A stretch of DNA of 35,497 nucleotides from Geosiphon pyriformis uo1. Its lineage: Eukaryota; Fungi; Glomeromycota. The position numbers and the translations under genes are program-made. Location of the stretch: contig JAAOMT010000483.1 in assembly GCA_016748015.1 (NCBI GenBank), positions 280,163 to 315,659 on the forward strand, given 5' to 3'. Of the stretch, positions 1,538 to 35,497 are shown piece after piece. The notes beneath the pieces are model-generated. The model saw only the letters and a list, made by a program, of their open reading frames with translations, made no database searches and was not told the DNA's origin. The stretch's first letter is position 1; each line of letters starts with the position of its first letter.

Positions 1538-1593
1538 ACAACCAAAAGAGTATATAAAGACACAGCATACATGACAAAAGCAACCAAAAAAAA

Positions 1594-2229
1594 ATGGAAA
1601 TACCAGATCATATTTACACCATAGCTCAACAATTGTTCCAGGCCTTAAGTAAACAACAGTTAGACATGGAAATTGTTATTAACAACCAAATAATTTGCTA
1701 TCGAAACATCCAAAGAAAGACAAAAAATACATCATATTAGTAACCACTAAAAAATGGTAAAAACTGAACAGATAACTTAATAAAAAAAGTGAAGAACACC
1801 TTTGGGAAAAGACCTATTATGGTACCAACAAAAGAGCTTACAAAAGAAAATTAGAAACAATGGATAGAACAACTTCCAATATCATATTGCTACTACCAGT
1901 TAGGTCAAAAGTTGAATATTTAGGGGTTGTATATCGACAAATCCAAAAGAATATTTAACCAAAACATAATACAACAAATTGAAGAATTTATCGGAAAAAA
2001 AACAAATTCAACACTACATGTTAAAACAATGTACTGACTACACAACATATTTTGGAATTATCCAGAAATACTGTTACATTCTGACATAGAAATTATAACC
2101 ATTAACCAATGGGGAAGAATAAACAATATACAAGTAGAAGATGTGAGAATCAGAATCAAACAAACAATACTTGAAAAAGAGGTATTAGAATTAATTCAAA
2201 ACAAAAATTTCAACAGAGCTCAATATTAA
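1594..2229 (+). pseudogene. Accessory ORF3 of element A, unknown function
   Basis: ATG at 1594 (MEIPDHIYTIAQQLFQAL...YCYYQLGQ...WGRI...FNRAQY*) with a few point stops; homologous to 33940-34569 and 6123-6799. Confidence 0.7.
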
Positions 2230-2243: not shown

Positions 2244-3068
2244 TGTTACTCATAGAAAAAAAAAACAGATATAAAAAAATAGTAAATTAATAGGAGAGTA
2301 GTAGTTAGCACATAAACACATTGCTCAGCAATGTGGAGCAATGTCAGAAATTATGGCACATTGCTCAGCAATGTGAAGTGATGTCAAGAAAATATGGCAC
2401 ATTGCTTAGCAATATGAGCATTGCTTGAGAAATTATAGCACATTACTCAAAAATGTGAGTGATCTCATAGAACCCAAATTATGTATATATAACAGCAGTA
2501 CTAGAAGTAGAAAGGGAAGAATCCATCAGTTAGAAACCTTTTATAATACACATATCAAATAAATAATTATTCATTATCTTAATCCACTTTCTACTATCAA
2601 CACTTTATGTTGATAGTAATTGATACTTAACACCACTGGAACAATAGCTCTTGATTATGGCTATTGACAGAATACTAACTTGTGCATTGCCTTGGCTCAT
2701 TTCTTTATTTTCTTTTCTTTTACTTTCTTTTTTTTCTTTGATTTTATTGTTGTATACTAATTGATTGAGGATTAAAATGCTGAGACACAGACGTCATAGT
2801 GGCTGGTAAAAGACCCATGAAATAAGAGTAGAACACTCATAGATTTAATGATAGCTTACCAGGAGAATTACCAGCCACCACGCTGAGAAAAAAATTTGAC
2901 AAAACTGTGGTTTCGGGAAGCTACGGATAAAACCATCAATTAAATCTCTGTCCATTATACAAAAAACTCTACAACAAAACCTTCAGATAAACAATACCAG
3001 AATACCAACCAAATACTAAGTTACAGATTTTTTATTTGACTTAAGACCCCAAATAATCATCTGTAACA
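2244..3068 (+). repeat. 3' LTR of element A (825 bp)
   Basis: TGTTAC(2244)...GTAACA(3068); TATATATAA at 2484-2492; the portion after the TATA box aligns with the E LTRs. Confidence 0.9.
2317..2457. repeat. Four 40-41 bp tandem units with palindromic core CACATTGC-TCA-GCAATGTG, in U3
   Basis: Cores start at 2317, 2357, 2398 and 2439. Confidence 0.9.
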
Positions 3069-5138: not shown

Positions 5139-6111
5139 TGTTACCAGAGGTTTTTGGTCTCTTTTCTTGAATGTTGTTAATGTTGATTTGCTGTAAATTC
5201 ACGTTTCTAGGAAGTAATTGGACCTCCAGTAACTGAATTTATCTTCAAATTATCTCCTATAATTTGAACTGCTAGGCTTATAAGTAGAATGACCAATTCC
5301 TTGCCAGTTACTTTATGTAGTTATATTGTAGTAAACATCAACTTTTTCCCAGGAATTGCTCATTTGGAATCTCACTAAAAATGTGTAGTTACTTTGCTGT
5401 AAAAGTCAACTCTTCTACAGGAATCTCATCTGTAAGCTACCCTAATGATTATAATAAAAAAAGAAAAAGAAAATAAAAGAAATATAAAAGAAATAAAATT
5501 CTGTCAAAGAAAACGTTTTCTATCCAGGCCTGGAGTCACTAACAGTTTATTGAAATTGGTAGCTAATCAATTTCAAAATGTTAGTTGTGTTGAGAGAATT
5601 TCAAGTGTAATAATTTAAGAATTTGGTTTTCGAATATTTAATTTTTATTTGATTTTTGTAAAAAGTAATTTGTTTCTAATTAAGATATCTAAAGTAAGAT
5701 ACTATAGTAAGATATTATGAGAAGATACATTTTCTTGAAGAGAAAAGCTCTTCTTTTATACAACTTGTTGTAGTACTATTCCTTAAACTTGCACTTTTTC
5801 TCTTTTCTTCAATTTGGGTGAACTAAAGATACATTTCGGCAAATTTACAAGTTATTTCACTGAACTATTGATTATTTCGGCAAATTTCATTAATTTCGGC
5901 GAATTTTGACTATGTTAAATGGTTCAGGGTATTGTGTAATTTGATCATCTTAATTTTTAGAGTACAAATCGGATTATTGATTGAGTAATAATATTTGATA
6001 ATTTGGCTAATTTAATAAGTGATAATCGAAATGATAATAATATGCTAATGAATAATAGGAATTATGAAGATAATTTCGTGCTAATTAATAGCTAAAATTC
6101 TACTGGTAACA
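5139..6111 (-). repeat. 3' LTR of element C (973 bp)
   Basis: 9-bp terminal inverted repeat TGTTACCAG/CTGGTAACA; TATAAAA on minus strand at 5754-5760; homologs at 10100, 14782, 17921 and 35164. Confidence 0.93.
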
Positions 6112-6114
6112 TAA

Positions 6115-6124: not shown

Positions 6125-6799
6125 AAGACTGAGCTCCATTGAAGTTCAAGCACTATCTGTGATGTTAAGATAGTAGTCCAAAATAATTGAAGTGATCTGG
6201 TCTGAAAATTGTTAAAATTTCAGTTCTGTGAGTTTTCCAATGTATTGAATCTTCATTGGATGGAGTATTAGATTTTGTAAGACGTTTTTACAAGTGTTGA
6301 ATAAATCATAGAGTCTAGATGCTGCTCTAAGTTTATAGTGAGTGTTTGTTGGTCCAGCTGCTGTCTTGAATTCATTGTGAATTTGTTTTTGTATTGTTTC
6401 AGGAGTAATGTTGGTTGCTTCAAGTTCCAGTTTTCATTCATAAAGTGTTCTTTCAATATAAAAATATCTATATATAAGAGTATGTTCCTTGTTCTGTTCA
6501 TTGAGAAATAGTAGTAGTTTTTGTTGAATTGTGGCATTTGGTAGAATATCAATAGGGACAAATAAAAGGTTTTCTTTCAGTGTTTGCTTCAAAAGTTCTG
6601 GTAACCTATTTTCAGAGTGACCTCTTGTTTTTTTTCTATAGGAGTGGTAGTTCTGAGAATTATTTACTACTGGGACTGTGGTTTCTTTTTGAATGTAATT
6701 AATTTGATTTCCATTAATCGTTATAGATAAGTCAGGAAGTGTTTTCAAGGCTAACATTAATTTTTGGAATATTTGTTAAATGTTTTAAGGAATAATCAT
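6123..6799 (-). pseudogene. Accessory ORF3 of element C
   Basis: ATG at 6799: MIIP*NI*QIFQKLMLAL...DLSITINGNQINY...YRYFYIE...RLYDLF...IGKLT; includes track ORF 6434-6757. Confidence 0.65.
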
Positions 6800-6953
6800 G
6801 GTAAAATTGACTAATTAATGAAAAGAGAGAATAAAAAAAATTATTTTTGGATATGAGATTTTATTTGTTTTTGGGTTTGTGTGTTTTTGTAATTATTTAC
6901 TATTTTTGTCTTTGTGTGTTATTAAAAAGATTATTGTAAAATTATGTTGAATT

Positions 6954-13980: not shown

Positions 13981-14781
13981 GTATGTCCACTTATTCTCCA
14001 ATTTTTGCTGTTGGGTTGATAATTGAAGATGTACTGGAAAAAGACAGAGAACTGTGATTAGTTCTCTAGAATATGTAAAAAGCTTATAACTTAATTAGAT
14101 GGTTTTACTTACAGAAAAGCTTGGCTAGAATCAAAATGTGCCCCCATTTCATGAGATTTTTTGAAAGTATACATAATAATTGAATCAATTAGATGATAAT
14201 AAATTTTGGTCTAACTGATGGGTATATTGTTCATGATGGCTTGGATCAAGGAGAAGTTTTCTTACCACTGCTTTGGAGAATTTTTTATGATTCTTTACTT
14301 TGTGAGATCAAGAGACATAAACAATTGTGTAGTTACAGATTGAGTTTGAAGTTTTTCACAAGAACTGGCAGATATGATCCTAAGAGTAAAAAAGAGTTGT
14401 TTTTTGCAGTTGGTGCTTTTGTTAATGACACTATTTAGATTAGTAATTGTATGGCAGTCATGCAATACATTTTGGATATTGCAAGCAAGTTTTTTTTAAT
14501 CAATAATATTTTGATTAATACAGACAAAACAGTCACCATTCTTATCAACCAGAGAGTTAGAACTGCATTACTGTCTATCAGTGATTCCAATATCTTGATT
14601 GTCAAAAAACATGAATTTTTTGATATTTGGGAATTTTCTTCTCAATAAATAATCTGTCTAAACCGAGCTTAGTCAAAGCTTATTTGGATGTCAGGTTTTT
14701 TTTTAATGTGGTGCTGAGGAAGGCCATTACTGAGAAGCAGTTTTTGTATCTGGTTTCTACTGTTTTACAACCCATAGTCAG

Positions 14782-15752
14782 TGTTACTGGAGGTTTTTGG
14801 TCTCTTTTCTTAAATGTTGTTAATGTTGATTTGTTGCTAATTTACATTTCTAGAAATAGTTAAACCTCCAATAACTGAATTTATCTTCAAATTATCTCCT
14901 ATAATTTGAACTGCTGGACTTATAAGTGGAATAGCCAATTCTTTGCCAGTTACTTTATGTAGTTACATTGTAATAAATGTCAACTCTTTCCCAGAAATTG
15001 TTCATCTAGAAGCTCACTAAAAATTTGTAGTTACTTTGCTGTGAAAGTTAACTCTTCTACAGGAATCTCGTCTGTAGGCTACCCTAATGATTCTGATAAG
15101 AAAAAAAAAGAAAAATAAAAGAAATGTAAAAGAAATAGAATTTTGTTAAGGGAAACGTTTTCTATTCAGGTCTGGAGTCACTAACAGATTATTGAAATTG
15201 GTAGCTAATCAATTTCAAAACGTTAGTTGTGTTGAGCGAATTTCAAGTGTAATAATTTAAGAATTTAGTTTTCAAATATTTAATTTTTATTTGAATGTGT
15301 AAATGGTAATTTGTTTCAATTAAGATATCTAAAGTAAAGTACTATGATAAGATACTATGAAAAGATACATTTTCTTGAAAAGAAAAGCTTTTCTTTTATA
15401 CAACTTGTTGTAGTACTAGTCTTTAAACTTGCACTTTTCTCTTTGCTACAATTTGGGTGAATTAAAAATACATTTTGGCAAATTTACAAGTTATTTCACT
15501 GAACTATTGATTATTTCGGCAAATTTTCATTAATTTTGGCGAATTTTGACTATGTTAAAAGGTTCAGAGTATTGTGTAATTTGATCATCTTAATTTTTAG
15601 AGTACAAATCGGATTATTGATTGAGTAATAATATTTGATAATTTGATTAAATAATAAGTGATAATCAAATTAATAATAATGTATGCTAATTAATAATAGG
15701 AATTATAAGGGTAATTTCATGCTAATTAATAACTAAAATTCTACTGGTAACA
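14782..15752 (-). repeat. Solo LTR of family C (971 bp), TSD TCAG/TCGG
   Basis: Full-length homolog of 5139-6111; removing it restores LINE QPIVGYRLQF. Confidence 0.93.
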
Positions 15753-17920
15753 TCGGCTATAGACTGCAGTTCAATTATGTTTCTAAAAATGTGTGTAAGA
15801 AATAGAATAAAATGCTAAGAAAAGGGTTAAAGCTCAAAGCCAATTTGGCTAGAAACTTCTCAAATGAAGCTGTGTATCATCCTGAATTATATGGTCTAAG
15901 AACTTTTGAGCAAGTGCTGGCTGAAAATTTGTTAACTGGTTTGGTTAACTTTGCTAATACTAATGAAATTCTCAGTAATTTATTTAAGCACAGAACTATG
16001 GATCTACAGACCACTAGCTGGATGCTCTGACACCTTCTTAGATTTCTGGCCAAGTTGTTGATTGATCCATTAGGTTGCTTTTTGGCTGGTGTAACACATA
16101 TTCTTAATTTGTGCAACCTGTTTTTGGGTGGTCATCTGCCTAATGTTTTTTAGGCTGGAAGTAAAATTGCAGTTTTGAACATGCTAGACTTGGGTCAATA
16201 TTTGAGTACAGTTAAGTTTTTTAAGAAATATGGTATTGTGTTTGTGAACCAACTTCTGGACCATCATGGTAAGTGCTTCATGTGGAATACTTTTTACAGA
16301 TGGAAAAAGCTGGATCCTAAAGATCTAGCTCCTGTCTGGTTTGTTTCTTTGGTAGAATTTATTGGTAGTAGGAGTTTGTCACATAGTGGGTTGTTGTTTT
16401 CTCAGTTCATTTCTGTTAATACTTTTTATAATTTTGGCTTTGTTTGTGAGTATTTGCTGAAATCTAAATTGAGTTCTATAAATGTTTACATAGATGGCTT
16501 GGTCAAAGACTTGGGATCGGTTAGTGCTCATGATAGTACTGCTGCATATTTTTCAGATGTAGATGTTAGTATTGGGGTCAGGGTAAACAAGTTGCTTTCC
16601 TTGACTTTGGTAGAACTGTAGGTCATTGCTTTTGTTTTGAAATGCATACTAGCTTCTAATTTAGTTATATTGTTTACAGACAGTCAAGCTTTACTAAACA
16701 TGTATTGCTTATATAATAGTATATCTGGTCCTGATTTTTGCAAAAAATGCTGGATTGAGAAAGAATATATTCATCAGATTATTTCTAAAAAAAGTTTATT
16801 AGTTATGTAAAACAAGATCAAGAGTCACTTTGGAAATATCAAAAATGAGTGTGCTAATTTCTATGCTAATACTACTGTCAATTCTAAGTTCTTTCTGTCT
16901 TTGGTGATTCCATGTTATTCTTTTAATGTTAAAGGCAAGCCTGTTTTTGAAAATGTTTGTTACTTTGTTAAAAAATTGTTTAATGCAGTCAATTTTGTTG
17001 GATGGGAAGCCAGGTGTGTTGATGGCATTGTAAATATAAGTTTCTATAATAAGATCAATATGATTAAGACTTTTAATGTTTGGTATTCTAATAACAAGAT
17101 GAATTCTGGCTACACTAGCTTAGCATCAGCTATGCTTTGGTTATACTTCATGAAGGCACTACACTATTACTTGCCAGTTGTTGTGAGAAAAAGATTGTAT
17201 AATCTAAGATATCTGAATATTGTTTGTATTAGATGTGAATTGGTAGAAGAATCTGATTACACATTCTTTTGCACTTATAACAGTGGGGTTAGGAATGAAA
17301 TATTGACAGAGGCTGTACTGGAATGGGATGTGTTGTTAAAGGCTTTGGCTGTGAAGAACATGGTTGTTCAATCTTTGAGTAAGGCTGTTTCATTTATTGA
17401 TTTGTACATAATACTGGCTAAAAGGTTTGTTTTAAAGGATTGGGTAACTAACATGGCCTGTTGTTTGGGTGCTGGTTCTGATAGTAATGTGATGATTGTC
17501 AAGTTGGTTCATTGTTTTGCTGAGAAGCACTGATCTGCTATTTGGTTATCTGCAACCAAAGTTAAGATTCTACTATGAAAAGCACAACCTTTTACCACAT
17601 AATAGATCTCCTATTTCTTCAGTGTCTGATTTGTCAACTTTGTGGTTTAATAAGATGATTTACAGTTTTGGCATTAGGTTGAATATACATGTCTGCTTTG
17701 GTTTGCATTCTTGTTTGTCCAAATTGGACTTTGGTTTTTTAAATAATGTTCTTATGATAAGTTATTTAGGTGTATAGTGCTGTCTTGATTGGTCCGAGTG
17801 GCTAATTGCATGTAAAAAGAGCATAAGCCATACTTAATTTAAAACTTGTCTTGGTTTTATGTATTTAGGTAGTGGTTGGGCTGTATTCATAAAACTTTAA
17901 TAAAAAAATAAAAAAATAAA

Positions 17921-18457
17921 TATCAAAACATTAATTGGTTTTTGGGAAATTTCAAATATAATTGATCTAAAAAATTTGGGTTTTTAAAGTATTTTTTTAT
18001 TACTTTTTTTACCAGATGATTTATTCTAATTAAAATAATTTTGAATAAGATAATTTTAAGATAAAATACATTTTCTCAAAAAAAAAAGCTCTTCTTTTAT
18101 ATAATTTGTTATAGTATTAGTCTATAAATTTGAACTTTTCTTTTTGTTATAATTTTAATAAACTAAAAATACATTTTAACAAATTACAAATTATTTTGAC
18201 AAATTATTAACTATTTTGGTAAACTATTTATTATTTTTACAAATTTCTACAAATTTTAGTAAATTTTTGAATGCTATATAGTCTAAAGTATTGTGTAATT
18301 TAATTATCTTAATTTCTATTATACAAATTGGATTATTAATTAAATAATAATCTTTAATAATTTTAATTAAATAATAAGTAATAATTTAAATAATAATATA
18401 ATAAAAATTATAAGAGTAATTTCATATTAATTAATGACTAAAATTTTACTGATAATA
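17921..18457 (-). repeat. Heavily AT-eroded partial LTR related to family C
   Basis: Aligns by eye with about 5570-6111; terminus ACTGGTAACA has decayed to ACTGATAATA. Confidence 0.75.
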
Positions 18458-19100
18458 GCATACAGTCTTAATAAATGTTTTTACTGGAATTTTTATTATT
18501 ATTATAGTTTAATTTAAATGTCTAGTTGATTTTTTAAGATTAGAATTTACCAAAATCTTTGCAGCTTTTGTTTTTTTTGTTACTTGCACTAAATTCAATT
18601 TAAAAGTAAATAATACATAGATAATCTTAGTAAATTTTAAAAGAATAAAAGCTTCCTTAAAACTATTAATACAAGTAAATAATTTTTTAACCATTTTTAA
18701 TTTTTCTTAAGAAGATTTTTTTATCACAGTATCTAAACTGGTATCTAAACTAATATTTAAATTAATATTTAAAACAAAAATTTTTTTAACCAAGACCTAA
18801 ACCAGATTTTTGAAAAAAAAAGTGATAAAGAAGTATTTATTACAAAGTTATTATCATTATTATTAAAAAATTAATTCTGTCCAAAAGTTTTTTTAAAACA
18901 TGCTTGGTTATAATTTTTGGTTCTTTTAGAGTACTATTAACATTTTCACTACTATAATTAACACTATTATTTTTTATTAATAGTCTCTTTTTATGTTAAT
19001 ACTCTCAAACTCAATAGTGTTTTCAGCTTTTAATTTCTTTTTATGTTTAAAATATTAGAGCCAATTGCTAGTTTATTATTAAACAAAAAAAGTTTTGAAG
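18458..19100 (-). pseudogene. Eroded coding relic, probably the N-terminal part of a LINE ORF1
   Basis: Track ORF 18509-18694 and flanks resemble, from recall only, ORF1 of this LINE type; boundaries approximate. Confidence 0.4.
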
Positions 19101-19851
19101 TAACTAACTAAATATTGAAAGAAAAACAATAAAAAAAAACAATAAACTTTTTTTTTAAAATTAAGATTCTTTAATAATTATTAAAATAAATAAGAGAAAA
19201 ATTTTTTTTTTGTTTTTGTTTATAATAAAATTTTCTATATATTTTACAATAATTATTTAAATAATTAAAATTATACTAATATAAAACTTATAATATTTTG
19301 ATTTTTTATAATTTTTTTTTATATTTAAAAGAATAAAACACATATTATTTATACATAAATTTATATTAAATACATTTTAAATTAAGAAAACTATTAAGTT
19401 ATTTATAAATATTTATGCTTTTATAAATTTATTAATATTAATATTAATATTATTTTTTAGTTCTTTGGAAATTTTAAAAACCAAAATTTTTAGATTATAG
19501 AATTTTATTTTTACTGTTATCAAAATCTTTAATTCATAATTTGTTAAATATTTTATTAACAAATATGTATAAAATATTCTTAAAAACAGTTTATATTTTA
19601 TTTAAATTACTATATTAATATAGTTTTTTAAAAGAATCAAATATTTTTATAGCTAATAAAAAATAAAATTTTTAAAAAAATTTTATTTGACAAAATTAAT
19701 ATTTTTAATAATTTTTGTTAAAAAATTTATACATAACAAAAAAAATAAGTATTCAACAAATTTTTTAATTTAATAAAAACAAAAATAGTTTTGTAATTAA
19801 TATTAAAAAATTTAAAAATATTGTATATATATTAATCTGTTGTAATTAAAG
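19101..19851. other. Extremely AT-rich low-complexity tract
   Basis: Very few G/C; (AATATT)n near 19434-19451; no ORF in the track. Confidence 0.7.
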
Positions 19852-22800
19852 TTTTTTTTTTATTTATTTATTTAATGAATGAAGTCCAAATATTGCCTAG
19901 TACAATACATCAAATAATTAATCTAAACTAGGTGTGAATTATGCATTTACTATATGCAATCAGCTACTCAAACCAATTAGGACAACACTATGTACCTATA
20001 TAAACAGAAACAGAGCCCCCAATACCTAAGAAAAATAAATGAGACTTACAAAATCCAAAACCCATACCAAATGCCTCATCAATACTCAACAGCCTAACTA
20101 CATCAGAAGAAAATAATGAGAACAGCCCAGAAATTGACCCAGAAATTAAACCATCAGATGGTATTAGCCTATTTTTCTCTATAAAAGCATGATGCTTGGC
20201 ATGAACCAACCAAATTTTCTTCCTAAAAGCAAGACAAAAGCTACACACAAAGTTTACAACTTTCTTATTCACAATCTTAAAATCTTTGAAAATTGATGTA
20301 GTTTCTCGAAACCAAATCTTAAAAACAAAGCTCTTGCAAAAAGCTGTATACACTGCAGTATTCGAAGCACAAGATAACAATAACTGAGACACACACAAAA
20401 AGAAGCTAGAAAGACCAAAAAGCACATGCCAAATAGTTGTATGGGCATCCAACAAATAACGATGAGCTGAATTATCAACCATGCAAGAAAAAGCATGATC
20501 TAAGACTTCAACATCACCACAATACAAACACAATACACTGGAATAACACCTGCCATATAATCACTTCCAAACAGCAACTGGCAACTAATGATGTAAAGCT
20601 TTCATAAAGTATGTATGAGAGCCAGCAGTAAGTTTACTAGTAAAGCCAGCAGCCATGTGTAAGTTGGGATGCCACACCAAGGATGAGCTAGGCCAATTCA
20701 TATCTGAAAACAAACTACTATCTAACATCTCAGATTCAGAACCAAGCTTCCAGTATGCATGATGAATAGAACAAAAAATTCCATGCACAAAATGTCTAGA
20801 ATTCCCAGAAACAACACTACTTTCAGCCAAAATACAACGTTCCATCAAGCCGAGAGAAAAGCACCAAGGGGAAAGAGAAGCTGTATTAGTGAAAACATCA
20901 GCACATTTATTGCCCAAGACAAAATAACCTCTAACCTTGCACCAAATAACATTTAAATTTTTCTTTCTAACAATGTTTACAATGTGCTAATGCTTCATTC
21001 AGCACCAATTTTGGAAGTCTGGATGCACCAAACTCAATTCTGATTTGCATGCATCCAAGACAGCCTGACTGTCTGTAAAAAGGCAAACTGAGCTAAAAGA
21101 AGGGACACACTCAAGAGCTAAAGCAATAGTCTGCAGCTCTGCTAAAGTAGAGGACAACAGACCAGAAATTCTAACTCCCAAATCCAAGTTTACATTCTCA
21201 AAAAAAACCACTGTGCCAGCTCTAACATTAGCACTTCCCAAGTCCTTCAAAGATCCATTTATATATACTGATAGGGTGTCAGCTCCAACATCCAACAATT
21301 GATTACAAATAAGCCCAAACTCACTAAATCTCAAAACACTTAAAAGTTCAGATTCATCCAAAGAGAAAAAACATACAAAGGAAGAAGCTACACCACCAAG
21401 AAAGTTAACAGAAAGCCTAAACCAGTCTGGAACAAAGCCATATGGGTCCAGTTTTTTCCAACACTTGAAGGTCTTCCAATTAAAAATAGTGCCTTTTTGA
21501 CAATAAAGCTGCTTCACAAAAGCTACACTATAGTGGCAAAGTGAAGAGAAAAATCTACAGAACTTAGACTCACCAAGGACAGTCAACATAGAAGTTTTAT
21601 CCCAAAAGTGGAAAGAACTGAACATTGGACTACTAAGAGATAAGTTGCAACCAAGAAAAATACAAACCACACCTGCCAAAAAATTATTAGAAGAGCTGAC
21701 TCTAATATGAGCTAGAGAGTTCAAAAGATGAAGTGGGTGCCAACTCAGAGTTTGCTAGTCAAAAGACCTGTGTGAAAACAAACATTCCAAAATCCCAACA
21801 GAGTTTGCGAAACACACAACAGAAGCTATTTTGTTTTTAGTCTGAACTTACTCAAAAGGCTTCAAACTATACAAAGAAGAGTAATAAAGCACATTGCTAG
21901 AAAAGTCAAGAGGCAGACCAGATTTCAATTTTAACATCTTGCAAACCATAGCATCTTACTTTTTGCACACTCTAATAGGAACAAAACTGAACTGCATTCT
22001 GTAGTTAACAATAGGATACAAAACAGCCAACACCAAATACAAAAACTGTTTATTTGAAATGGCCTTCCTCAGCACAAGATTGACAAAAAACCTAATGTTT
22101 AAATGCATCTTAGCCAAACTAGGCTTTGACAAACCATCTGTAGACAGAAAAATACCCAAATAGTAATGAGACCTCTCTTTCTTGATAATGGAAATAGATA
22201 AACCACTAATTAACAAAGAAGAACACTCTACCCCACAATTAATAAAAATAACCACTGTTTTGTTGTTATTAATAGAAATGTCATTGATTCTGAAAAATTT
22301 ACTAGCAATATTGAGAATGTGTTGTATTACAGTCTGATTGCTACCAACCCATATTGTATCATCAACAAAAGCACTAGTAGCAAAAAAAGATATCAATCCA
22401 GTCCGAGATTCTACACAACTAATCCTGACAATAAAATGAGAGTTCAGTCTATATTCACACACACTTTCCTGTCTCTTGATTTCACATAAAAAGGGATCAT
22501 AAAAGATGTGCCAAAGAAGAAGTGAAAAGACCTCTCTCTAATTCAAACCATCATGCACCTAATATCCATCTGTTAAACCAAAATCTGTCATAACTCTATT
22601 AACATGATCATTGTGAATACCACTAAAAAATCTAATGAATTTACTGCACATTTTTATCCTGACCAAGCTCTTCCTAAGATGCTCCTATCTAACTGAATTA
22701 TAGGCCTTTTGCATGTCCTGTAAGACAAGTCAGAGCTTATGGTTCTTCTCCAATATATCTTTAACTACTAAACCAATGGCAAAAATTGGAGATTGCATGG

Positions 22801-24375
22801 TCATACTCTTTAAAACCAAGAAATTGTCTCTTTGCAAAACATCAAAAGTGCTGCATGCTAAAGAAATTCTGTCCAAGAAAATCTTAGAAAGAATTTTACA
22901 CACAGTTTTAATCAAAGCAATAGGTCAGGTGTTCATTAAAACTCCCTTCCGTTCATATGACTTGGGAATTATTGAGACTCAGGCTTCCTTTCAAATACTT
23001 AACACTAGCTTTGGAAGCATTGCAGCAGATTAATCTTTAGTTTTTTTAAATTTTTGTTTGATCCATAAGTTTATTTAAAATCCCAGAAAGACCAACTGCT
23101 TTGCCATCAGGTAGATCAGAAACCACACCGAGCAACTTATTGAAATCAACTAAGCACATAACATTTGAAAATGCATCATCAAAAATGTAATTCAATGGCT
23201 AATATTAATAAGACCAAGAAACAGAAAAATTCTCCACCACCTCGCATTTCCTAGTCCAGCCCTCTATAATAACATCTACCCTGGCTTTGACCAGATTGGG
23301 CTCCAAAATTAGTTCATTCCCAACCATCAGATGGTTTAAGACTACCTTTCAAAAAGGATGTTTCAGCACACTTCTGATTATGTAACCTTTATTGGTCACA
23401 AAATTTTTTATTTGTTTGTCAACAACTGACCTAATTCTTGACTTTTCAGTCCACAAAAACTTAGCAAGCTAGAGGCACAATACAATTTTTGCATACTGAA
23501 AAAAGCCAAATGCACATGATTCAAATCTGCACCAGAATTTAATAGTGTCTGAACAGGCAAAGTCTTATCAGCATCCAAAGATTCCCAGTGGTCCAACAAA
23601 GATTCAAAAGCACCACCAGCACTTTCATGTAAAACTTTGGCAATCCTTAACACCAAAACTTCAAGCTTATAAAACTTAGAGGACTTTTTTGAGAAAACAC
23701 CATCATACTCCTTGAACCATTTTTTCTTAAAAACTTCATTTGCCGAAAAACACATCACTTTGTGCACAACATCTTATATAACATTCAAATCTGAAAACTT
23801 CACAGAAGTGGCAAACACATCTGAGAATAATGCTGCATTGGCTAATGTAGCACTCTCAAAATTGTTCTATTTAGTCTCATTAGTATTTTTAAAGTCAAAT
23901 TTTCACCAATTCCTATTTGCCTGCTTGTAAATAGAGTTCAATCATATATTCAAAAGCCCATCTAGACCCACAAACACAGTCCAATAATCAGTGTTAAAGA
24001 ATTTCCCAACATTAAACACATTACAATTCATTACAACATTAACCAAGTTTGAAGAAATAAACAAAAAATCAATCATCTTAGCCACACCATGAGAGTTAGC
24101 CTATGTTGGCATATTTACATGAAGACATCCACTTAAAAAATTGACCAAACCAAGATCCAGACACTTTTTGAAACTGGCACACTTATGAGACCCATTTTCA
24201 TTGAAGTTGTCACTCAGAATAACAAAAGATGACTTATTTATGGCTTTAGCAATCATAGAATTGATATCACCAGCTTGGGAAAACCAAGCTGCCAAAGAAG
24301 CACCAGCATAGAGCCCCAGAATTGAAACAAAAAGTTTATTTTTAAAAAGTAGCTTGAAAGAGATAAGTTGATCAG
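19852..24375 (-). mobile_element. LINE F (same type as D), cut in the APE domain by element E
   Basis: (TAAA)n/poly-A tail at 19852-19873 on minus strand; ORF2 fragments colinear with D. Confidence 0.92.
19988..24375 (-). pseudogene. LINE F ORF2: APE (partial), RT (FVDD), RNase H, CCHC knuckle
   Basis: DNFNE; AFVDDTIW; YINGS..AELQTI..FTDSQA..GNKCAD; CLYCGDVEVLDHAFSC. Confidence 0.92.
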
Positions 24376-25281
24376 TGTTACTCATAGAATATAGAAAATA
24401 TAGTATTATTAGTCAATAGATATTAGCCAATCAGATATAGACATAGTAAATGTGGAATTCTAAGATTCCTTTCAGAGAAATTGCAGGATTTCAGGAATTT
24501 CAGAATTCTCCAACAAGGAATCGCAGGATTCCAGAATTCCTCTCATCAAGAATCACAGAATTCCAAAAATTCCAAGATTCCTGTTACAAGGAACTGAGGA
24601 ATTGAAGAATCTCAAATATGTATATATAGCAGTAGTATTAAAAGCAGAAAAGACAGAATGGACACCAAGAATTCTTAGCTTAGTTACTACAATCCTCAAA
24701 TAAAATAATTATTCACTATATCAAATTCCTTCTTCACTATCAACACTTTATGTTGATAGTAACTGATACTTAATCATACTGGAACAATAGCTCTTGATCA
24801 TGGCTATTGACGGGATACGAATTAGAATTGCCTTGGCTTATTTGCTTTATTTCATATTATTTGCTTTCTTTCTTTTCTTTTCTTTTCTGTTTTTGCTTTG
24901 TTGTTTTATACTAATTGATTAAGGATTAAAAGTGCTGAGTTATTAATGTCATGGATAGTCTGGTAAAAGATTCAGAAATAAGAGTAGAATTTTATATATT
25001 ATCGGATAGCTTACCAGAAAAGCACAACTGCCAGAATAAATCTGGCCTCTATACTGAGAAAGAAATTAAATGGAATTGCGATTCTGAAGACTATTACAAT
25101 TACAATTGAATTTCTGTTTATAATACAAAGAACTCAACCCAAAATCTTCAGATATCAAAATCTTCATATATCAAAACCTTCAGATTACCAATACCAATAT
25201 CAACAGAAATCAAGATAGCTTTTGAGCACCAAGTTATGGGTTTGTTATTTAATTCTACAGCAGAAATAATCACCTGTAATA
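24376..25281 (+). repeat. 5' LTR of element E (906 bp)
   Basis: TGTTAC...GTAATA (decayed GTAACA); CCAAT at 24427; TATATATA at 24621; three 16-bp tandem units at 25141-25188. Confidence 0.9.
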
Positions 25282-25300: not shown

Positions 25301-25471
25301 TATAATCCTACAGAGAACCCACACCAACAAACACCATCCAAAAGTGGCAGAATCAGAAAATATAGGAGCAAACCATTTAGAATTTGCAAAATCCTTATTT
25401 CAATACTATTGTCAATACTTGGAATTAAACCACAATCATATATCCGTCGAATCAGCCTTCAATTTCTATGT

Positions 25472-26348
25472 TGTTACAAGTGATTATTTGAGGTCTCAAA
25501 TCAAATAACAAACCCATAACTTGGTGCTTAATTGATATAAAGTTATTGGTAATATCTAAAGATATTATTATCTAATGGTTTTGGTTGAGTTCTTTGTATA
25601 ATGGACAGAGATTCAGTGGTGATGGTATTAGTTTTCCTGGAGTCACAATTATGCCCAATTTCTTTCTCAGCTTGGCGGCCAGATTTATTCTGGCAGTTGT
25701 GCCCTTCTGATAAGCTATCTGTTAATATATATAATTCTACCCTTATTTCTGGGTCTTTTACCAGGCTATTCTTGACGTCAATAACTCAGTGCTTAATTCT
25801 TTTAATCAATTAGTAAACAACAAAAGAAAATAAAATAAAGAAAAATAAAAGAAAATAAAGAAATAAAGAAAATAAAATAAGAAATAAGTGTCCTGTCAAT
25901 AGCCATGATCAAGAGCTATTGTGCCAGCAGGTTAAGTAGTGGATAATAACATTAATATGGAAGTGATTTCATTTCAAGTTATAGTATTCTATCTTTTGAA
26001 GGAAGGATATTTAATAATTATGACCTGCGAGTCTAATTGACTCTGAGAGTCCTATTGACTCTCAGTCTTCTTAACTTTGAGCCTAATTGACTGCCTAAAT
26101 TTTTTTTCTTCTTTTCTAGCTTCTGATACTACTGCTATATATACATAATTGAGATTCCTTAATTTCTCAATTCTTCACACCAGGAATCCTGAAATTCCTG
26201 GAATCTTGCAATTCCTTTGAGAAGAATTCTGGAATTCTGGAATCCTACAATTCCTCATACGAGAATCCTGGAATTCCACATTTACTACATTTATTCTGAT
26301 TGGCTAATTTATGTACTAATATTTAATTCCTATATTCTATGAGTAACA
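25472..26348 (-). repeat. Inverted solo LTR of the E/A family (877 bp), TSD ATGT
   Basis: Reverse complement starts TGTTACTCATAGAATATAGG; ATGT at 25468-25471 and 26349-26352. Confidence 0.93.
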
Positions 26349-26352
26349 ATGT

Positions 26353-28600
26353 CAATGAAAAGATTTCCTCTTTGTTAAAAACACTAGTGAATATTGAATC
26401 AGCAAGGGAACTTTCTATAGGAAATTAATTCAAAACACCAACCTACCAACAAATCATTATTTCACATCCATCATTACTGAGATCAACAAAGAAATTGAAC
26501 ATCACACCCAACAAAGATATCTAATTACATATGCTAATAAAGGCAAAGGAAAACTACAAACACCAGCAGTAACACCCAGAAAAATACAACCACCTACTTA
26601 AAAAAAAAACAGAATTGAATCCCCAAGCAACCCATCCTACCACTATACACCTGGAAGCGCCATTAACATATCATCAACAGACATGCCCCCATCAACTACG
26701 ACATCAGTATTTAAATGATTCCCATTCCAAAATAGACAAAAAAAAACAGAATTATTAGGACCATATGGCGAATACTTTAAAAGATTTAATTCATGATCAT
26801 TAATCCCATTAGGACTTCGATCACCACTGTCTCCACCAGATTTCAGAATTTCTGATCCGTGAAAAGTAATGGAATCAGAAAAAGAGGAAAAAGAATCAGA
26901 GGATCAAGAATTCACTTACCAGCACCTGATTACTGAAAACCCAGAAGTTGAAACCCCAAATCTTCAAACTCAGCAAAATCTAAATCTAGAAAATTTGGAA
27001 ATTGAAACTCCGAATATTCACACCCCGTTAAATCAAAGAAATCAAAACCCCAATTTAATTCATCAGCAACACCTACCTTCCATTATCATCATCAATCAAC
27101 CACCAATTGAGCCGATCAGTGAGCCAATTCAACCACTTCAAGTACTACCCCAACAACCATTATCTCTTCAACTACTTCAGCAACAGCCGCCTCAACAGTC
27201 CCAACAACCTATAGTACTGATGGCCTATACACCAATTGCCAAATTAGAAAAATTCACTGGTAAAGAGGATGATGCTCAAGCTTGGTTGAATGATATCGCC
27301 AAAGCAATCATGGCAAACAATTGGAACAATGACAGAGCTTTTTAGGCAATCCCATCTTTCCTCCAAGATACTGTAAATTCATGGTATCAAAGCTTAGTCG
27401 CAAAACCTCAAATGTTTGATGCATTTAAGCAGGAGTTCCTAAGATACTTCAGTAATAATAATAATATCAACCATTTGGTAAATACTTTTACTACTATTAA
27501 ACAAAGAGACACTGAAGCCATTACCACGTACTTAGGACAATTCTATAGATGCCTGCGCCAAATCCAAGCTATCAATGCTGATTATTTTACAGTGGCCCAA
27601 ATTTTGAATCAATTTATCAGAGGCTTATGCAGTAGTATTTTCCAGTGCATATGTTCACTACATCCAGCAGATTTACAAGCAGCTGTCACTAACGCCAAAG
27701 ATTTTGAAGCAACCGAACTCGAAGCTAACCACACCCAAGCCGTTAATCTAGTAATGAATAGATCATCTGAATTGGATTCTAAATTGAAACAATTCAATGA
27801 TTTCATCAATCAAAAATTAGAGGAGTACTTAGCTGACAACCAAGCAATCTATCAACCGCCACAACGATGCAACAATCAGGGAAACTCTAATCACGTCCAA
27901 AATCAGCTATGTCCATCATTTCCGGCCAATCAACAGTGGCAACAAGAAACACATGTTTGCCACTATTGTGGTAAACAAGGACACATACAAATTGATTGCC
28001 GCCAATGTTTAAATAACCAACAATTGGGAAATCAATATCAAAACCCTGATCACTGGTTCTCAGTTCCGAGTTCCCAGCAAAATCAAAAACAATACCAACA
28101 CTTATCTCATTATGCACCAATGACACAGCAATCAATGTATCAACCATCAGTATATCAAGCTCCAATTTATCAACTGCAGCTGCAAGTGATTTATCAACAA
28201 CCGCAGCCACAAATAATATATCAACCCCAACAAATTCAAACACCGCTCCAAAACTTACTACTCAATAGAACACAAAGACTGAGAATGACTCAACAAAGTT
28301 AGAGATTGGCGATAGTGGTCCATCAGCTGATCCCCAGTTCTTCACAGCAACCATTTGGATTATGCTAGTGGAATTCAGGTACCAGTCAACCCCAGAACCC
28401 AAATTCTCAGAACTATTTAAGTCTCCTGGTCACCCCAGAAGACGCCTTAGCCAATAACCCAGCATTCGCCCAAAAACAACCACTCACCAGTAATATCCCC
28501 CCTGCTATCATTACCGAAGACAAGTCCTTGGCTGCTATCTTCTCATTCAAATTCGAGGAAACAACTGCAATGCCATTATTTAGTGGAGCCACTCTTAAAG
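26353..28600 (+). pseudogene. gag: gag of element E (long N-terminal extension, capsid-like region, CCHC knuckle, Q/P-rich tail)
   Basis: KLEKFTG..DAQAWL; FIRGL; CHYCGKQGHIQIDC; the frame appears to continue upstream of the solo LTR to about 25302. Confidence 0.85.
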
Positions 28601-28980: not shown

Positions 28981-29328
28981 TTCAAGACTCCTCCAAAAGA
29001 GAAACTATTGATTGAACTGGAGAAAGAAAAAGAAAAACCTACCTGGAAAGCTTACCAAGTCTCCTGGGCTGACGTTGACCACAACAAACTACCACCCATA
29101 CTCTCATGAAATGACAAGGGAAAGAAGAAGGAAGAAAAAGAACTTGCCTGAGAGCCAAACCTAGGAGCATAAAATGACGACAGCCAGAGCAAACCAACCA
29201 CTAAATGGAATTAGGAAGAAAAAGAAAAAGGGAAGGAATGAGAAGAAAAGCTGACACTAGCCAACAAATTGACTTATGTCCCATATGCCTACCAACCACC
29301 AGCTCAATACTGTCGACCCAAGCTAGTG

Positions 29329-29931
29329 TGCGTCAATTGTGGCAAGAAATTGTTGTCAATGGGTGCATGTTGCAACAAAGATGAAGAATGGTCTACAGTA
29401 ACCAAATATTATTGTCACTCATACATTATCGAACACAATGGATGACCAAAATAAAAAGGAAAGTGGGATGGCGAACGTTGTCTGGCATGTGGAAACACCC
29501 TTCTTGATGAAGGAATGTGGAATGACATTTCTGGGGAAGGAGGAACGTGTGACAAGTCATGCCAATACATGATTCTCATTAGCAACTGGATATAAAAAGG
29601 AATGTCCATTGAAGCTGTCTGGAGAAGAACTGTTTAGTGTCTGGATGGTTACCCACATGACGATAATGAAATTTGGCGAATGGCACTCGCCAAAATTGAA
29701 GGAGTGTCACCTGAAGAAATAAAAACGATCAAAGACAACCCCTCAGAATCTCTAGAACTTGACTGGGATGCAGAACCCATCATAAATCTCCTAAATCTAG
29801 AACAATTCCACAAACACTACCAAGAATTAGCACCCACAAGGAAAGAACAAAAACAATGGTTAGAGCAGTTGAACACTTGACTATGTCAACACTGCCTAAT
29901 TCCCTGTGACTTCCAGTATTGTGATGAGTGT
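29329..29931 (+). other. Cys-rich putative multi-zinc-finger insert in pol
   Basis: CVNC..CC..CHSY, CLAC..CDKSC, CQHCLIPCDFQYCDEC; Cys mostly shared with copy B. Confidence 0.65.
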
Positions 29932-30180
29932 AACCTTATCTACAATCTACTACCACATATGATCTACATGATCCCAAAAGAAGAAGAACCAATCAGCAGC
30001 TGTGTATTGGAATCAGAATTGCTGATCAATCATGCTTCAAACTCCAACAACAATGATGATAACAACGGTTCAAGCTCCAGTCAAGATGGCAATGACAATG
30101 ACAATAGTATAAACTCAGATTTAAACTCTGATTCAGACTCCGAACAATATATTGCACTCTCTGATCTTACCAAAGACCAA

Positions 30181-30609
30181 GAACTTAAATGGTTTAGTGA
30201 TAATGACGAAAGTATCATGCCAGAATAAGCACATGATACTGATGCAGAGTTTGATCTGAGGTATCCAGGAAAAGATGCCATCAAATTGAAACCACATTCA
30301 TGCATCTGCCTTGATTTGAAAATAGCGCTGGAAATTCCAGCAACAACAATGGTTCAATTAACATCTAGGAGTAGTTTAGTGAAAAGAGGGATTAATATAA
30401 AAGGAGGAATAATTGACACAGGATATGTAGAAAATATCATTGCTATGCTATAAAATGACTCAGAAAAAGTCTATATAATAGAGCCCAATGAAAAGATAGC
30501 ACAGGCAATATTCCTGCCTCTGATTAGAATAGCTTAGTTAGTATTAGTGGGAAAAAGGGAGGAATTAGGAATAACAGCGAAAGGAATACAGGGATTTGGA
30601 TCAACAGAT
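30181..30609 (+). pseudogene. dut: Trimeric-family dUTPase domain between protease and RT
   Basis: All five motifs: DAEFDL, SRSSL, GGIIDTGY, EKIAQAI, KGIQGFGST. Confidence 0.92.
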
Positions 30610-31119: not shown

Positions 31120-32430
31120 AGCAAAAACGAGTTTGGCCAAACTGACATCATCTAGCATTAGATCAAGATGGAAAATGCAATGCCAATTAAACAAAAAGCA
31201 TACAGAATACCACCAGCTAGCCATGAGATTATCTATCAAGAGATAAACTGAATGCTTGACAATAGGCTAATTCAGCCATCAATGAGCCCATGGTCATTAC
31301 CAGTAGTACTTATTCAGAAAAAAAATGGGAAAATTTACTTTTGTGTAGATTATAGAAAACTCAATGGAGTAACTTGTGGAGATAGGTACCCCACTCCACA
31401 GATCCAAAAATTATTCGATGCTTTTGGTAAAAACAAATGGTTTTTAATATTAGACCTAAACAGTGGTTACTGGCAAGTAGCCATGGATCCAGTCAACAAA
31501 GAGAAAACAACATTCACCACAAGGGAAGGGAATTTCGAATTTAAAGTAATGCCATTCAGCTTAACCAATGCCTCAGCAACTTTCCAACAGCTAATGAAAA
31601 TTGTTTATACTGGCTTATTATAGAAATCAGTAGTTGTATACTTGGATGACACCAATGTATTCTCAAAAACATTTGATGATCATCTTCATCATCTTCAACA
31701 AGTGTTCAAAAGACTAAGAAGAGCAGGACTAAAGTTAAATGCAACAAAGTGCTTTTTCGGCAAAACAGAACTAAAATTCTTGGGACACATAGTCAGCAAA
31801 GATGGCATCAAAACAGATCCAGAGAAAATAAAGATAGTAAAAAACTTTTCAGTGCCAGCCAATATAACAGAACTGAAATCATTCTTGGGATTTGCCAACT
31901 ATTATCGACATTTTATTAAGAACTTTTCCAAGATAGCGCAACCATTCAACCAACTGCAAACCAAGAATACAAAATATGAATGGACAGAAAGTCAACAAAA
32001 AGCTTTTGATATTCTGAAAAGAAAGCTCATTCAAGCTCCAGTACTGATCTATTCAGATCACAGCAAACCATTCATCATTACCACCAATGTATCTGGCCAA
32101 GCATTGGGAGCAGTATTATCTTAGAGAAAACCAGATGGCAAAAAACATCCAGTAGCATATGCCAGCAGAGGTTTAACACCAGCCAAAAAGAACTATGGAA
32201 CACCAGAACAAGAACACTTAGCAATATACTGGGCAGTCATGAAATGAAAAGAATACTTAAGCCAGAAGTTTAAAGTATACACAGATCACAAAGGATTAAC
32301 ATCACTTTAAAAACAAGAATTTGGAGATGGAAGACAGTCAAGATAAAAAATAGCACTCACACCATATAATTATACTATACATTATAAAAAAGGAAAAGAC
32401 AATGGAAATGCTGACAGTTTGTCATGAATG
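31120..32430 (+). pseudogene. pol: Reverse transcriptase (YLDD 31639-31650) and RNase H of element E
   Basis: SPW..PVVL, FCVDYRKLN, LDLNSGYWQV, MPFSL, FLGH; TNVSGQALGAVL, YTDHK, NADSLS. Confidence 0.95.
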
Positions 32431-32505
32431 AGACAAATCTAAAGAACAGTTCAATCCAAAAATATAACAAAACCAGAACAATATCAACAAAAAATATAAC
32501 AAAAG

Positions 32506-33888
32506 ATGAACATACAAAAATATCAACAACTGCAACATTATATAAACACTCAACAATTCAAGAAGAATTTATCTCAATGGAATGAAAGAGTATCAAACAA
32601 CAATCAAAATATTTTATCACTTACCAAAATATACTTATCAAAAAAATAGAAAAGATTCAGATCAACCAACCAGAGTAATTACAGAGCCAGAAAAAGAGAC
32701 AATATTATTCAACATGCACTCAAATCCAACAGCAGGACATTTTCACAAAGAAGCAACCATGAAAAGAACCAGAAAAAGGTACTATTGGCCATTAATATAT
32801 TCAGACATCATCCAATATGTTCAAAATTGTGATGCTTGTCAGTAAAGAGGAGATATGAAACCCAGTGAACCATTAAGACCAATCAAAGTGAGACAACCAT
32901 TTAACTGTATTGGAATTGATTTAGTTGGACTATTAACAATCACCAGCGGAGGAAACAGGTACATAGCAGTAGCCATGGACTATCTCACTAAATGGCCAGA
33001 GGTGAAAACAATTCAAAGAGCAGATACAAAATCCATTGCCGAATTCGTTCATTAAGATTTGATCTGTCAACATGAATGTCCAAAAGAATTACTTTCAAAC
33101 TAAGAAACTTATTTTGTGAACAGAACATTGGCAGAATTAAGCCAAAGATTTGGAATTAAGAGACCACTATCATCACCATACCATCCACAAACCAATGGAT
33201 TAGTCGAAAGATTTAACAGAACATTGTGTGAAGCAATAGCTAAACTCAGCCAAGAAAACCAGAATGATTGGGATTTGTTGATATCATCAGTACTATTTGC
33301 TTATTGGACAATAAAGCAAGATACTACACAAGCAACACTATTTGAATTAGTATATAGTAGAACAGCAACACTACCAGTGAAAATAGAAGTCAGCACATAC
33401 CCAACCAAACCAATAACAGAAGAAAATTTCAAAAACACATTGTTGAGAAGAACATATAACTTAATAAAAACATTAGAAAACAAACAACAAAGAGCAGCTG
33501 ATAACATACAAAGATCACAAGAGAAACAAAAAGAAAGACATGATAACCAACTACCAGATAAACCAGTTGAATTCAGGATTGGAGACAAAGTACTACTACA
33601 TCGTACCAAAGTGGAAAAACAATGGAGTGGAAAATTTGATCTCAAATGGGACAGACCATTTCACATAGAAGAAATTCTAGAAAATAGAGCTTACAAATTA
33701 AAATTGAATAACAAAATCTTGACCAAAGCAGCACATGGAAATTGACTGAAATCATACTACTATACAGCATTATTATCCACCAGTAATATTCCACAATTAG
33801 GAGTACAGAGAATACTAGTCCAATCAGATGAGATTTCACAAGATCTGGAACCAATCATTATCATTGACAACAACACGTCCAATTGATT
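32506..33888 (+). pseudogene. Integrase of element E (no chromodomain recognised)
   Basis: H..GH...CDAC; IGIDLVG; YHPQTNGLVERFNRTL; KWDRPFHI; ends DLEPIIIID. Confidence 0.93.
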
Positions 33889-33939
33889 AACAAAAGAATA
33901 TATAAGAACATAGTCAACGTGACAGAAGAGATCAGAAAA

Positions 33940-34569
33940 ATAGAAATTATAAACAATATCCATTTATTAGCCCAACAAATTTTTCAATTAATCCAACACC
34001 AGGAGATGGAAATTACAATCAATCAACAAACTATTTGTTACAAAAATACAGCAAAAATACCACAAAACAAAGCACAGAAAAGACTTGAAAATGTTGTTGA
34101 CAAGATCATGATCAAGATAAAATTGGCCATAAAAGAACAACAAATAGTCAAATTACATCAAAAACTTACTAAAGAAACTTGGACTTGGTGAACACAACAA
34201 TTTCCAAAAAATTATTGTTACTTTTACTTGGGACAATACGTGAATATCCAGAACTTATATACGGATAAAACAAAGCGGTTATTCGACACAACAATACTAC
34301 AACAACTAGAATATTTTGTAGGGAAAAACAACTTATCCACACAAGCTCGAGCTATATACTGAATACACACAACATTTTAGGATTGATCAGGAATCCTACT
34401 CAACAAAGCAATGGATACAGTTACCAATAATCAATTGGGAAAAATCACTAATGCTCAATTTGAAGAATTACAGACTCAAATAACACAAGTAATTCTTGAA
34501 AACAAAATTCAGGAAATACTTCAAGAGGGAGAATTAAAAGAATTAGATTTTGACAGAGCTTAATATTAA
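33940..34569 (+). pseudogene. Accessory ORF3 of element E
   Basis: IEIINNIHLLAQQIFQ...YCYFYLGQ...LGKITNAQF...FDRA*Y*; homologous to ORF3 of A and C. Confidence 0.7.
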
Positions 34570-34579
34570 AAGGAAGTGA
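34568..34579 (+). other. Polypurine tract of element E
   Basis: AAAAGGAAGTGA, ending 3 nt before the LTR. Confidence 0.8.
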
Positions 34580-34582
34580 TAA

Positions 34583-35163
34583 TGTTACTCATAGAATATA
34601 GGAAATATAGTATTATTAGTCAGTAAATATTAGCCAATCAGATGTAGACGTAGTAAATGTGGAATTCCAAGATTCTTCTCAGAGGAATTGCAGGATTCCA
34701 AGAATTTCAGGATTCTCCAATAAGGAATTGCAGGATTCCAGAATTCCAGAATTTCTCTTATCAAGAATCACAGGATTCCAAAAATTCTAGGATTTCTGTC
34801 ACAAGGAATTGAGAAATTGAGGAATCTCAAATATGTATATATAGCAATAGCATTAGAAACAGAAAAAACAGAATCAACACCAAGAATTCTTAGCTTAGTT
34901 ATCACAATCTTTAAATAAAATAATCATTCACTATATCAAATTCCTTCTTCACTATCAACACTTCATGTTGGTAGTAACTGATACTTAATCATACTGGAAC
35001 AATAGCTCTTGATTATGGCTATTGACGGGATACAAATTAGAATTGCCTTGGCTTATTTGCTTTATTTCATATTCTTTGTTTTCTTTGTTTTTTTTTTTTT
35101 CTATCTTTGTTTTGTTGTTGTATACTAATTGATTAAGGATTAAAAGTGCTGAGTTATTGACAT
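34583..35163 (+). repeat. 3' LTR of element E, interrupted by a C-family LTR
   Basis: Direct repeat of about 24376-24949. Confidence 0.93.
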
Positions 35164-35497
35164 TGTTACTGGAGGTTTTTGGTCTCTTTTCTGTAATGTT
35201 GTTGATACTTATTTGCTGTGAATTCACGTTTTCTGGATGTGGTTGAACCTTCAGTAACTGAATTTATCTTCAAATTATCTCCTATAATTTGAACTTGCTG
35301 GACTTATGAGTGGAATGGCCAATTTTGTGCCAGTTGCTTTGTGTAGTTACGTTGTAGTAAACGTCAACTCTTTTCCAGGAATTGCTTGTCTGGAAGCTCA
35401 CTAAAAATGTGTAGTTACTTTGCTGTAAAAGTCAACTCTTCTACAGGAATCTCGTCTGTAGGTTACCCTAATGATTATGATAAGAAAATAAAAGAAA
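35164..35497 (-). repeat. Family C LTR running off the window end
   Basis: Starts TGTTACTGGAGG; homolog of 5139 and 14782. Confidence 0.92.

Follow-up and report, generated by a model that had tools for sequence, protein, structure and literature searches.

The window, that is, the whole stretch of 35,497 nucleotides of the Geosiphon pyriformis contig that was analysed, is a stack of decayed, nested retroelements, three of which are called here E, A and C. Element E contains a pair of LTRs, a polypurine tract (PPT) and, in order, a Ty3-type gag/capsid, reverse transcriptase (RT), RNase H and integrase, as recognised by Pfam matches and by translation, and is thus a Ty3/gypsy element. Element A is represented by its 3' half only (1-2787), and element C lies on the minus strand and ends at the LTR 5132-6112. 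In the pol of E, a segment between protease and RT (30230-30480, plus strand), recognised by eye from its motifs, is presumably dUTPase-like. A Cys/His-rich region 5' of it (29300-29950, plus strand) recurs in the minus-strand insert 3074-5130. Fungal Ty3/gypsy retrotransposons bearing a dUTPase are mentioned in a passage of PMC2774666. Four more copies or fragments of the C-type LTR lie elsewhere in the window, each of them on the minus strand (10100-10875, 14774-15753, 17915-18455 and 35161-35497); one of the four adjoins the end of the E 3' LTR. Decayed frames on both strands of 10900-24300 look like non-LTR (LINE-like) RT/RNase H remnants, and the segment 18001-20000, which takes in part of the heavily decayed C-type LTR 17915-18455, is extremely AT-rich (GC 13 to 16%).

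Each of the three elements carries a further frame, ORF3, which follows the integrase stop and precedes the PPT/3' LTR. For element E it occupies positions 33940..34569 of the plus strand (about 209 to 210 codons, ATA start, five in-frame stops), for element A positions 1594..2229 of the plus strand (212 codons, six internal stops), and for element C positions 6149..6799 of the minus strand (about 217 codons, five internal stops), where the family frame runs on through the PPT into the LTR. An in-frame start exists further upstream of the E frame, at 33910, and is used by some intact relatives; a 10-residue N-terminal extension is carried by P0006, P0033, P0094 and P0097. A six-frame HMM scan of the window returned exactly these three loci and no fourth, which, together with the translations, bears out the frames of roughly 210 to 225 codons that a sequence-only reading had placed after pol in A, C and E. 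All three copies are dead, and they are strongly depleted in CpG (observed/expected 0.09 to 0.25); their interrupted frames agree with CpG-depleted decay. The nearest intact relatives are P0005 (75% identical to E), P0004 (77% to A) and P0008 (87% to C). KAG9303264.1 is an intact natural protein of the E type, and KAG9285377.1 is one of the A type.

The A and E proteins are clearly related (37.5% identity, E about 1e-42 by tblastn). Pairwise comparison of C was weak with E (E 2e-5 to 3e-5) and not significant with A. When profiles of intact natural copies were compared, the A/E-type and the C-type aligned from end to end over 188 columns (probability 93%, E = 3.3e-7), with a score of 51 against a maximum of 25.5 over 50 column shuffles. 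The protein-level homology between A/E and C that had been perceived by eye is therefore significant.

Upstream of ORF3, the RNase H of E closes with a stop in the interval 32380-32640 (plus strand), and the integrase opens there as a separate ORF in another frame. This integrase (32570..33886, plus strand, start approximate) lies directly 5' of ORF3; it has an rve_3 match and an SH3-like C-terminal part, where SH3_Tf2-1 scored below the Pfam cut-off and no chromodomain match was found. The same order recurs elsewhere: in 14 of the 14 gene models that hold both (E, C, C2 and D subfamilies), the integrase is N-terminal to ORF3. The signals immediately before the frame are candidates drawn from sequence only. 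TATA-like boxes, which may be part of an internal promoter, precede the ORF3 start by 41 nt in E (33899..33905, plus strand) and by 43 nt in A (1551-1557, plus strand); in C, a pyrimidine tract followed by TAG (6800..6840, minus strand), about 10 nt before the ATG, may be a splice acceptor.

At the other end, the ORF3 stop of E overlaps a conserved pre-PPT DNA motif and the PPT itself (34550..34582, plus strand), which is followed by the 3' LTR (34583..35160, plus strand), 90% identical to the 5' LTR at 24376-24944. Three kinds of C-terminus were encountered among the natural proteins: 27 (A, E and D types) end in F(D/N)xAQx and a stop; in 61 (58 C-type, 3 metagenomic) the frame crosses the PPT and enters the LTR; and three end in a third way. 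The ending F(D/N)xAQx, which had been proposed as common to all three elements, is accordingly in frame in the A, E and D types and falls outside the reading frame in C. Because the C-type and metagenome frames read through the PPT into the LTR, the conserved terminal F(D/N)xAQx plus stop is, judging from these junctions, a DNA motif just before the PPT and not a peptide motif.

Homologues of ORF3 amounted to 303 protein clusters (2,870 candidates), and every one of the 120 matches listed is annotated in Geosiphon pyriformis as a 'hypothetical protein'. When 1.84 billion representatives were searched, 122 matched at E ≤ 0.001. By similarity, six Geosiphon subfamilies (E, A, C, C2, D and F) and four metagenome groups can be distinguished among the 251 natural proteins that were fetched; the source was checked for 20 proteins (14 Geosiphon, 6 ENA or JGI), the remaining representatives being assigned by similarity only. 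Subfamily representatives are 20 to 40% identical to each other, except for C and C2 (67%). The two most distant groups, borderline in the search (E = 3e-4), gain support when profiles are compared (E = 1.5e-5 and 1.3e-7). Intact natural copies with open frames were found, 107 of the 251 proteins matching over at least 180 aa, which made a stop-repaired consensus unnecessary. Many GenBank gene models of Geosiphon (P0069, P0072, P0133, P0249 and others) fuse ORF3 to integrase, to gag or to neighbouring elements; these chimeras are therefore annotation artefacts of nested transposons.

The metagenome proteins probably sit in LTR elements as well, because in three of the four groups the C-termini spell a PPT/LTR junction. 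As to their DNA context, viral contigs gave 57 candidate stretches and metagenome contigs 81, of which none was confirmed; scans for the junction pattern gave no match apart from three viral ones, and an integrase query against the viral contigs gave three matches, short and weak. Longer fused forms (663 to 2000 aa) were absent from 6,902 candidates, which is weak evidence since fused models are known from the search of representatives. With P0165 as a tblastn query, no plasmid match and four phage matches (E 0.4 to 10) were obtained.

Selection on ORF3 was estimated from A and E over 196 codons (dN 0.46, dS 1.60), giving a dN/dS ratio of 0.29 with a bootstrap upper bound of 0.49, whereas the lower one carries no information, since a value of 0 was assigned to saturated replicates. 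Mismatch proportions at codon positions 1, 2 and 3 were 0.40, 0.29 and 0.54. As decay after insertion raises dN/dS, the value of 0.29 is conservative; the comparisons involving C gave 0.51 and 0.37, near saturation. The ratio is not near 1, and the selection that had been suspected from protein conservation is upheld. In ten out of ten representatives, the maximal 19-residue Kyte-Doolittle mean was 0.27 to 1.29, with 0 to 3 cysteines and no segment resembling a signal peptide or a transmembrane segment; four metagenome representatives have an overall pI of 5.4 to 6.8, neutral or acidic. Lacking a transmembrane segment, ORF3 is not an env, as the sequence-only reading had maintained. We conclude that ORF3, with homology extending over at least ten subfamilies, is a genuine, selected, non-env third gene of Geosiphon Ty3/gypsy elements.

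Along the A and E elements, divergence is unevenly distributed. Across RNase H and integrase, nucleotide identity is 79 to 87% and transversions are scarce; over ORF3 and U3, identity is 54 to 64%, with 20 to 34 transversions per 150 nt (shuffled control, 50%); in R/U5, it is 74 to 76% (81 to 88% of aligned columns). Similarly, dS is 1.6 in ORF3 versus 0.35 to 0.51 in the integrase. The simplest reading of these alignments would be an exchange of an ORF3+U3 cassette between families. Because their U3 halves differ, A and E do not form a single LTR family, as had been believed, and the window holds three ORF3/U3 types, not two. Another mosaic of U3 and R is seen in an inverted LTR plus leader (25471-26355, minus strand), which has an E-type U3 array and a different R with palindromic repeats of its own. 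The R of the A and E LTRs contains a conserved hairpin-forming inverted repeat (2592-2618, 24736-24760 and 34951-34975), possibly an RNA element.

The U3 of each type has its own repeated motif. The E-type array (34662..34811, plus strand) consists of 3.7 copies with a period of 40 and a palindromic unit, GGAATY-N4-GATTCC, and is also found in the 5' LTR and in the minus-strand LTR 25471-26355. The A-type array (2317..2459, plus strand) has 3.5 copies with a period of 41 and a 19-bp palindromic unit. In the C type, the motif AAATTYGCCGAAAT (5833..5906, minus strand) recurs at spacings of 41 and 19/20 bp, and the C-type LTRs near 10595-10655 and 15472-15533 show this pattern too. TRF reported periods of 41 (A), 40 (E) and 39 (E-like LTR 25471-26355) and none for the C-type motif, for which the palindrome excess was not significant either. 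Compared with 200 shuffles, an excess of palindromes was found in three of the eight LTRs tested, namely A (0/200), the E 3' LTR (1/200) and the LTR 25471-26355 (0/200), and was not significant in the E 5' LTR (17/200) or in any of the four C-type LTRs. Matches to each motif fell mostly inside the LTR type to which it belongs (A 4 of 4, E-type 18 of 22, C-type 10 of 11), an enrichment that is partly circular, since inspection of those very LTRs by eye had supplied the motifs.

Structure prediction with AlphaFold2 gave a pLDDT of 61.6 for P0005; for P0165, with a diverse alignment of 75 sequences, it gave a pLDDT of 84.0 and a pTM of 0.68. The P0165 model is composed of an N-terminal helix and a beta-hairpin at 11-42, and an all-helical core at about 85-210, mostly with pLDDT above 90. 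Two core helices with a conserved G-x-x-N turn between them are predicted to resemble a helix-turn-helix (HTH); the second of these predicted helices varies by family in its initial part and ends with the conserved R-L-Y-x-x-F. Foldseek returned no match at E ≤ 0.001, with two models against the PDB and one against BFVD. The VIA wide structure comparison of both models gave no match at Z ≥ 5 among 48,161 chains, the N-terminal part being barely covered, and folded only within the whole model. The best VIA row for P0165 was the HTH DNA-binding domain of Spo0J/ParB (Z 4.5, rmsd 5.5, 93 aligned residues, model 84-210), followed lower down by SigF (3.9), KorB (3.5) and RptR (3.5); the rows for the first model included KorB, SopB, CENP-B and DnaA-IV, with a Z of 2.8 to 2.9 for the ParB/KorB type. 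All of these Z values are below the stated noise level of VIA, which is 7 to 8, and about 13 for helical proteins.

Pfam DUF1016_N matched below the cut-off in 12 of 115 members. The ORF3 core profile was therefore compared with alignments of 30 ParB-HTH and of 60 (out of 69) YhcG/DUF1016_N proteins, and the probability was 0.35 to 0.38%, inside the spread of the shuffles; ParB against YhcG_N, as a positive control, was significant (E = 4.6e-6). With the core at the shuffled level, membership of the ParB/YhcG family is not supported, and the proposed homology did not hold up in sequence profiles. What is common to ORF3 and the ParB, KorB and YhcG-N HTH domains is a similar order of predicted helices across the core, at noise-level Z; ORF3 differs from them by its extra N-terminal helix and hairpin. 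No described domain was detected above cut-off in Pfam, NCBIfam, PHROGs or PDB sequences, so that the protein is as uncharacterised as had been claimed. The PDB sequence search brought up only importin-5 (E = 0.018), and nothing with a wider profile. Matches below cut-off to Glypican, FtsQ (21 of 75) and phrog_23683 (12 of 75) were judged to be due to chance or specific to a subfamily. In the ESM Atlas there was no usable match for P0005, and P0252 gave sub-threshold leads only, the first being RegA, a family of phage translation repressors (score 0.90 with 136 features; recognition fell short of the threshold). The fold comparison proposed with the sequence-only reading thus ended in a confidently predicted fold with no clear match among solved structures, which may be either new or a very remote HTH.

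What might such a protein do? The reading we favour, although we put its probability short of even, is that ORF3 may be a family-specific DNA-binding regulator that recognises the array of repeats found in the LTR promoter of its element, in the manner of VANC or Tas. The protein would be expressed from an internal promoter (A and E) or from a spliced RNA (C), and would bind the U3 units of the cognate array; once bound, it would activate transcription or shield the LTR from silencing by CpG methylation. As protein and array changed together, each family would regulate only itself. Between A and E, ORF3 and U3 diverge together as one block, and the U3 of each family has a different array spaced at about 40 bp; equal spacing with unrelated motifs is the trace that would be expected of one reader protein with shifting specificity. 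The motif matches that keep largely to their own LTR type, the palindrome excess in three LTRs, the strong CpG depletion of the copies, the VANC precedent and the fold hints, all of them weak, also count in favour. Against the regulator stand the negative ParB/YhcG profile comparison, the noise-level Z values, the neutral or acidic pI of four metagenome representatives, and a palindrome excess short of significance in the E 5' LTR and the C-type LTRs. Also, ORF3 adjoins U3, so that a single recombination swaps both with no functional link needed, and repeated sites for host factors are ordinary in the U3 of LTRs. Since adjacency and host-factor sites could yield the same picture, and three ORF3/U3 pairs were examined, the regulator is proposed only tentatively. 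It is ranked ahead of an RNA-binding protein, of an adaptor or targeting protein and of a general suppressor.

An RNA-binding accessory protein, of Rev/CERV or Tat type, would export, translate or package the element RNA, and might be needed since the integrase is a separate ORF. A conserved basic helix would suit RNA as well as DNA, a hairpin-forming repeat is conserved in R, CERV of the C. elegans element Cer1 offers a precedent (PMC10309623, in part), and the RegA lead for P0252, below threshold as it is, points in the same direction. Against this, domain searches and inspection of representatives revealed no RNA-binding domain or arginine-rich tract, and the R hairpin is common to A and E, whose ORF3s have no more than about 40% identity. 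We regard this role as unlikely, and equally so that of a protein adaptor, which would be an integrase partner for targeting of integration or tethering to chromatin, or a particle component, replacing the chromodomain of other fungal Gypsy integrases. The position of ORF3 directly after an integrase with only an SH3-like C-terminal match, and the soluble, all-helical predicted fold, would suit an adaptor; but the A and E integrases are nearly identical while their ORF3s are deeply diverged, which means that ORF3 tracks U3 and not the integrase.

The fast divergence of ORF3 relative to pol could also reflect an arms race, in which ORF3 would suppress host defence (RNAi or DNA methylation) independently of sequence; in the related fungus Rhizophagus, transposable elements are acted on by CG methylation and small RNAs, according to a passage of bioRxiv 10.1101/2021.03.30.436303. 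Structure searches with the ORF3 model revealed no resemblance to a known suppressor, though, and such a role leaves the family-specific arrays unexplained, so that we consider it distinctly improbable. Far more so is an env-like envelope or movement protein: ORF3 does occupy the env position, yet the ten representatives have neither the hydrophobic segments nor more than three cysteines, and the helical model matches no viral structure in BFVD. As for a frame that is open by chance or carried along neutrally, the interruption of all three window copies is what speaks for it, and it is refuted by the selection and homology results: dN/dS is 0.29 with an upper bound of 0.49, subfamilies that are 20 to 40% identical align in frame from end to end, and the fold is predicted with confidence. 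Its chances are next to nil.

How do these elements compare with known ones? They resemble Ty3/gypsy elements (Metaviridae) by their LTRs, their PPT and the order of Gag, protease, RT, RNase H and integrase, and differ from the usual ones in that the integrase has an ORF to itself and a third gene, other than env, is present. Passages of a survey of fungal LTR elements mention gag and pol only (PMC3248453). Troyka elements, according to part of PMC12440569, are animal elements with CG termini, and were hence set aside as not relevant. No description of a third ORF in Glomeromycotina Gypsy elements was found in the literature; Repbase, Dfam, GyDB and article supplements may hold such elements. 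Additional ORFs (aORFs) in 3' position are described for plant LTR retrotransposons (Athila/Tat, Grande1 ORF23, Retand ORF3/4), and passages of the same article give the functions of such ORFs as unknown (PMC11728184). Like them, ORF3 is an extra ORF of no known domain or function that several families have conserved after pol and before the 3' LTR, and it is under purifying selection. Unlike them, it is found in Glomeromycotina, has no detected Pfam homology and no transmembrane segment, and is paired with family-specific U3 arrays. ORF3 thus represents a family of 3' accessory genes that was apparently undescribed until now.

For the function of regulator, two other systems are of interest. 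VANDALs are Mutator-like DNA transposons. The tandem repeats bound by their anti-silencing protein VANC in Arabidopsis vary from one related element to another, and VANC diverges faster than the transposase (PMC5735166, in part). ORF3, likewise, is far more divergent than the transposition enzyme, and family-specific tandem motifs are found in non-coding DNA, in three families only. VANC differs by its DUF1985/DUF287 domains, which are not among the Pfam matches listed for ORF3 (25 of 38 families in one scan), and binding and demethylation, shown for VANC, would be conjectural for ORF3. The second system is Tas, whose gene is located 3' in foamy virus. The Tas/Bel1 protein, encoded by the element itself, activates both the LTR and an internal promoter (PMC4929722 and PMC8670036). 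ORF3 may be similar in being an element-encoded activator of an LTR and an internal promoter, in 3' position. Tas belongs to a vertebrate retrovirus with env, unlike the ORF3 elements, and no sequence or structure match of ORF3 to Tas/Bel1 was seen.

A stronger proposition, which we hold to be doubtful, is that a sequence-specific factor for transcription or against silencing, whose HTH-like fold would be new or very remote, may be encoded by the elements themselves, with ORF3+U3 as a swappable 'lock and key' cassette; each protein would then read its own array of about 40-bp period, providing private regulation of the kind that VANC gives to a plant DNA transposon and Tas to foamy viruses. 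The three natural pairs of protein and array permit a direct test of cross-specificity. Hundreds of Geosiphon 'hypothetical proteins' are, at any rate, transposon genes of the ORF3 family, and a selected accessory gene found in at least six subfamilies may be one means by which the heavily CpG-depleted LTR elements multiplied. LTR elements make up 41.2% of the G. pyriformis genome (PMC11952901, in part), and the lock and key cassette, if true, could help explain this 41% cover.
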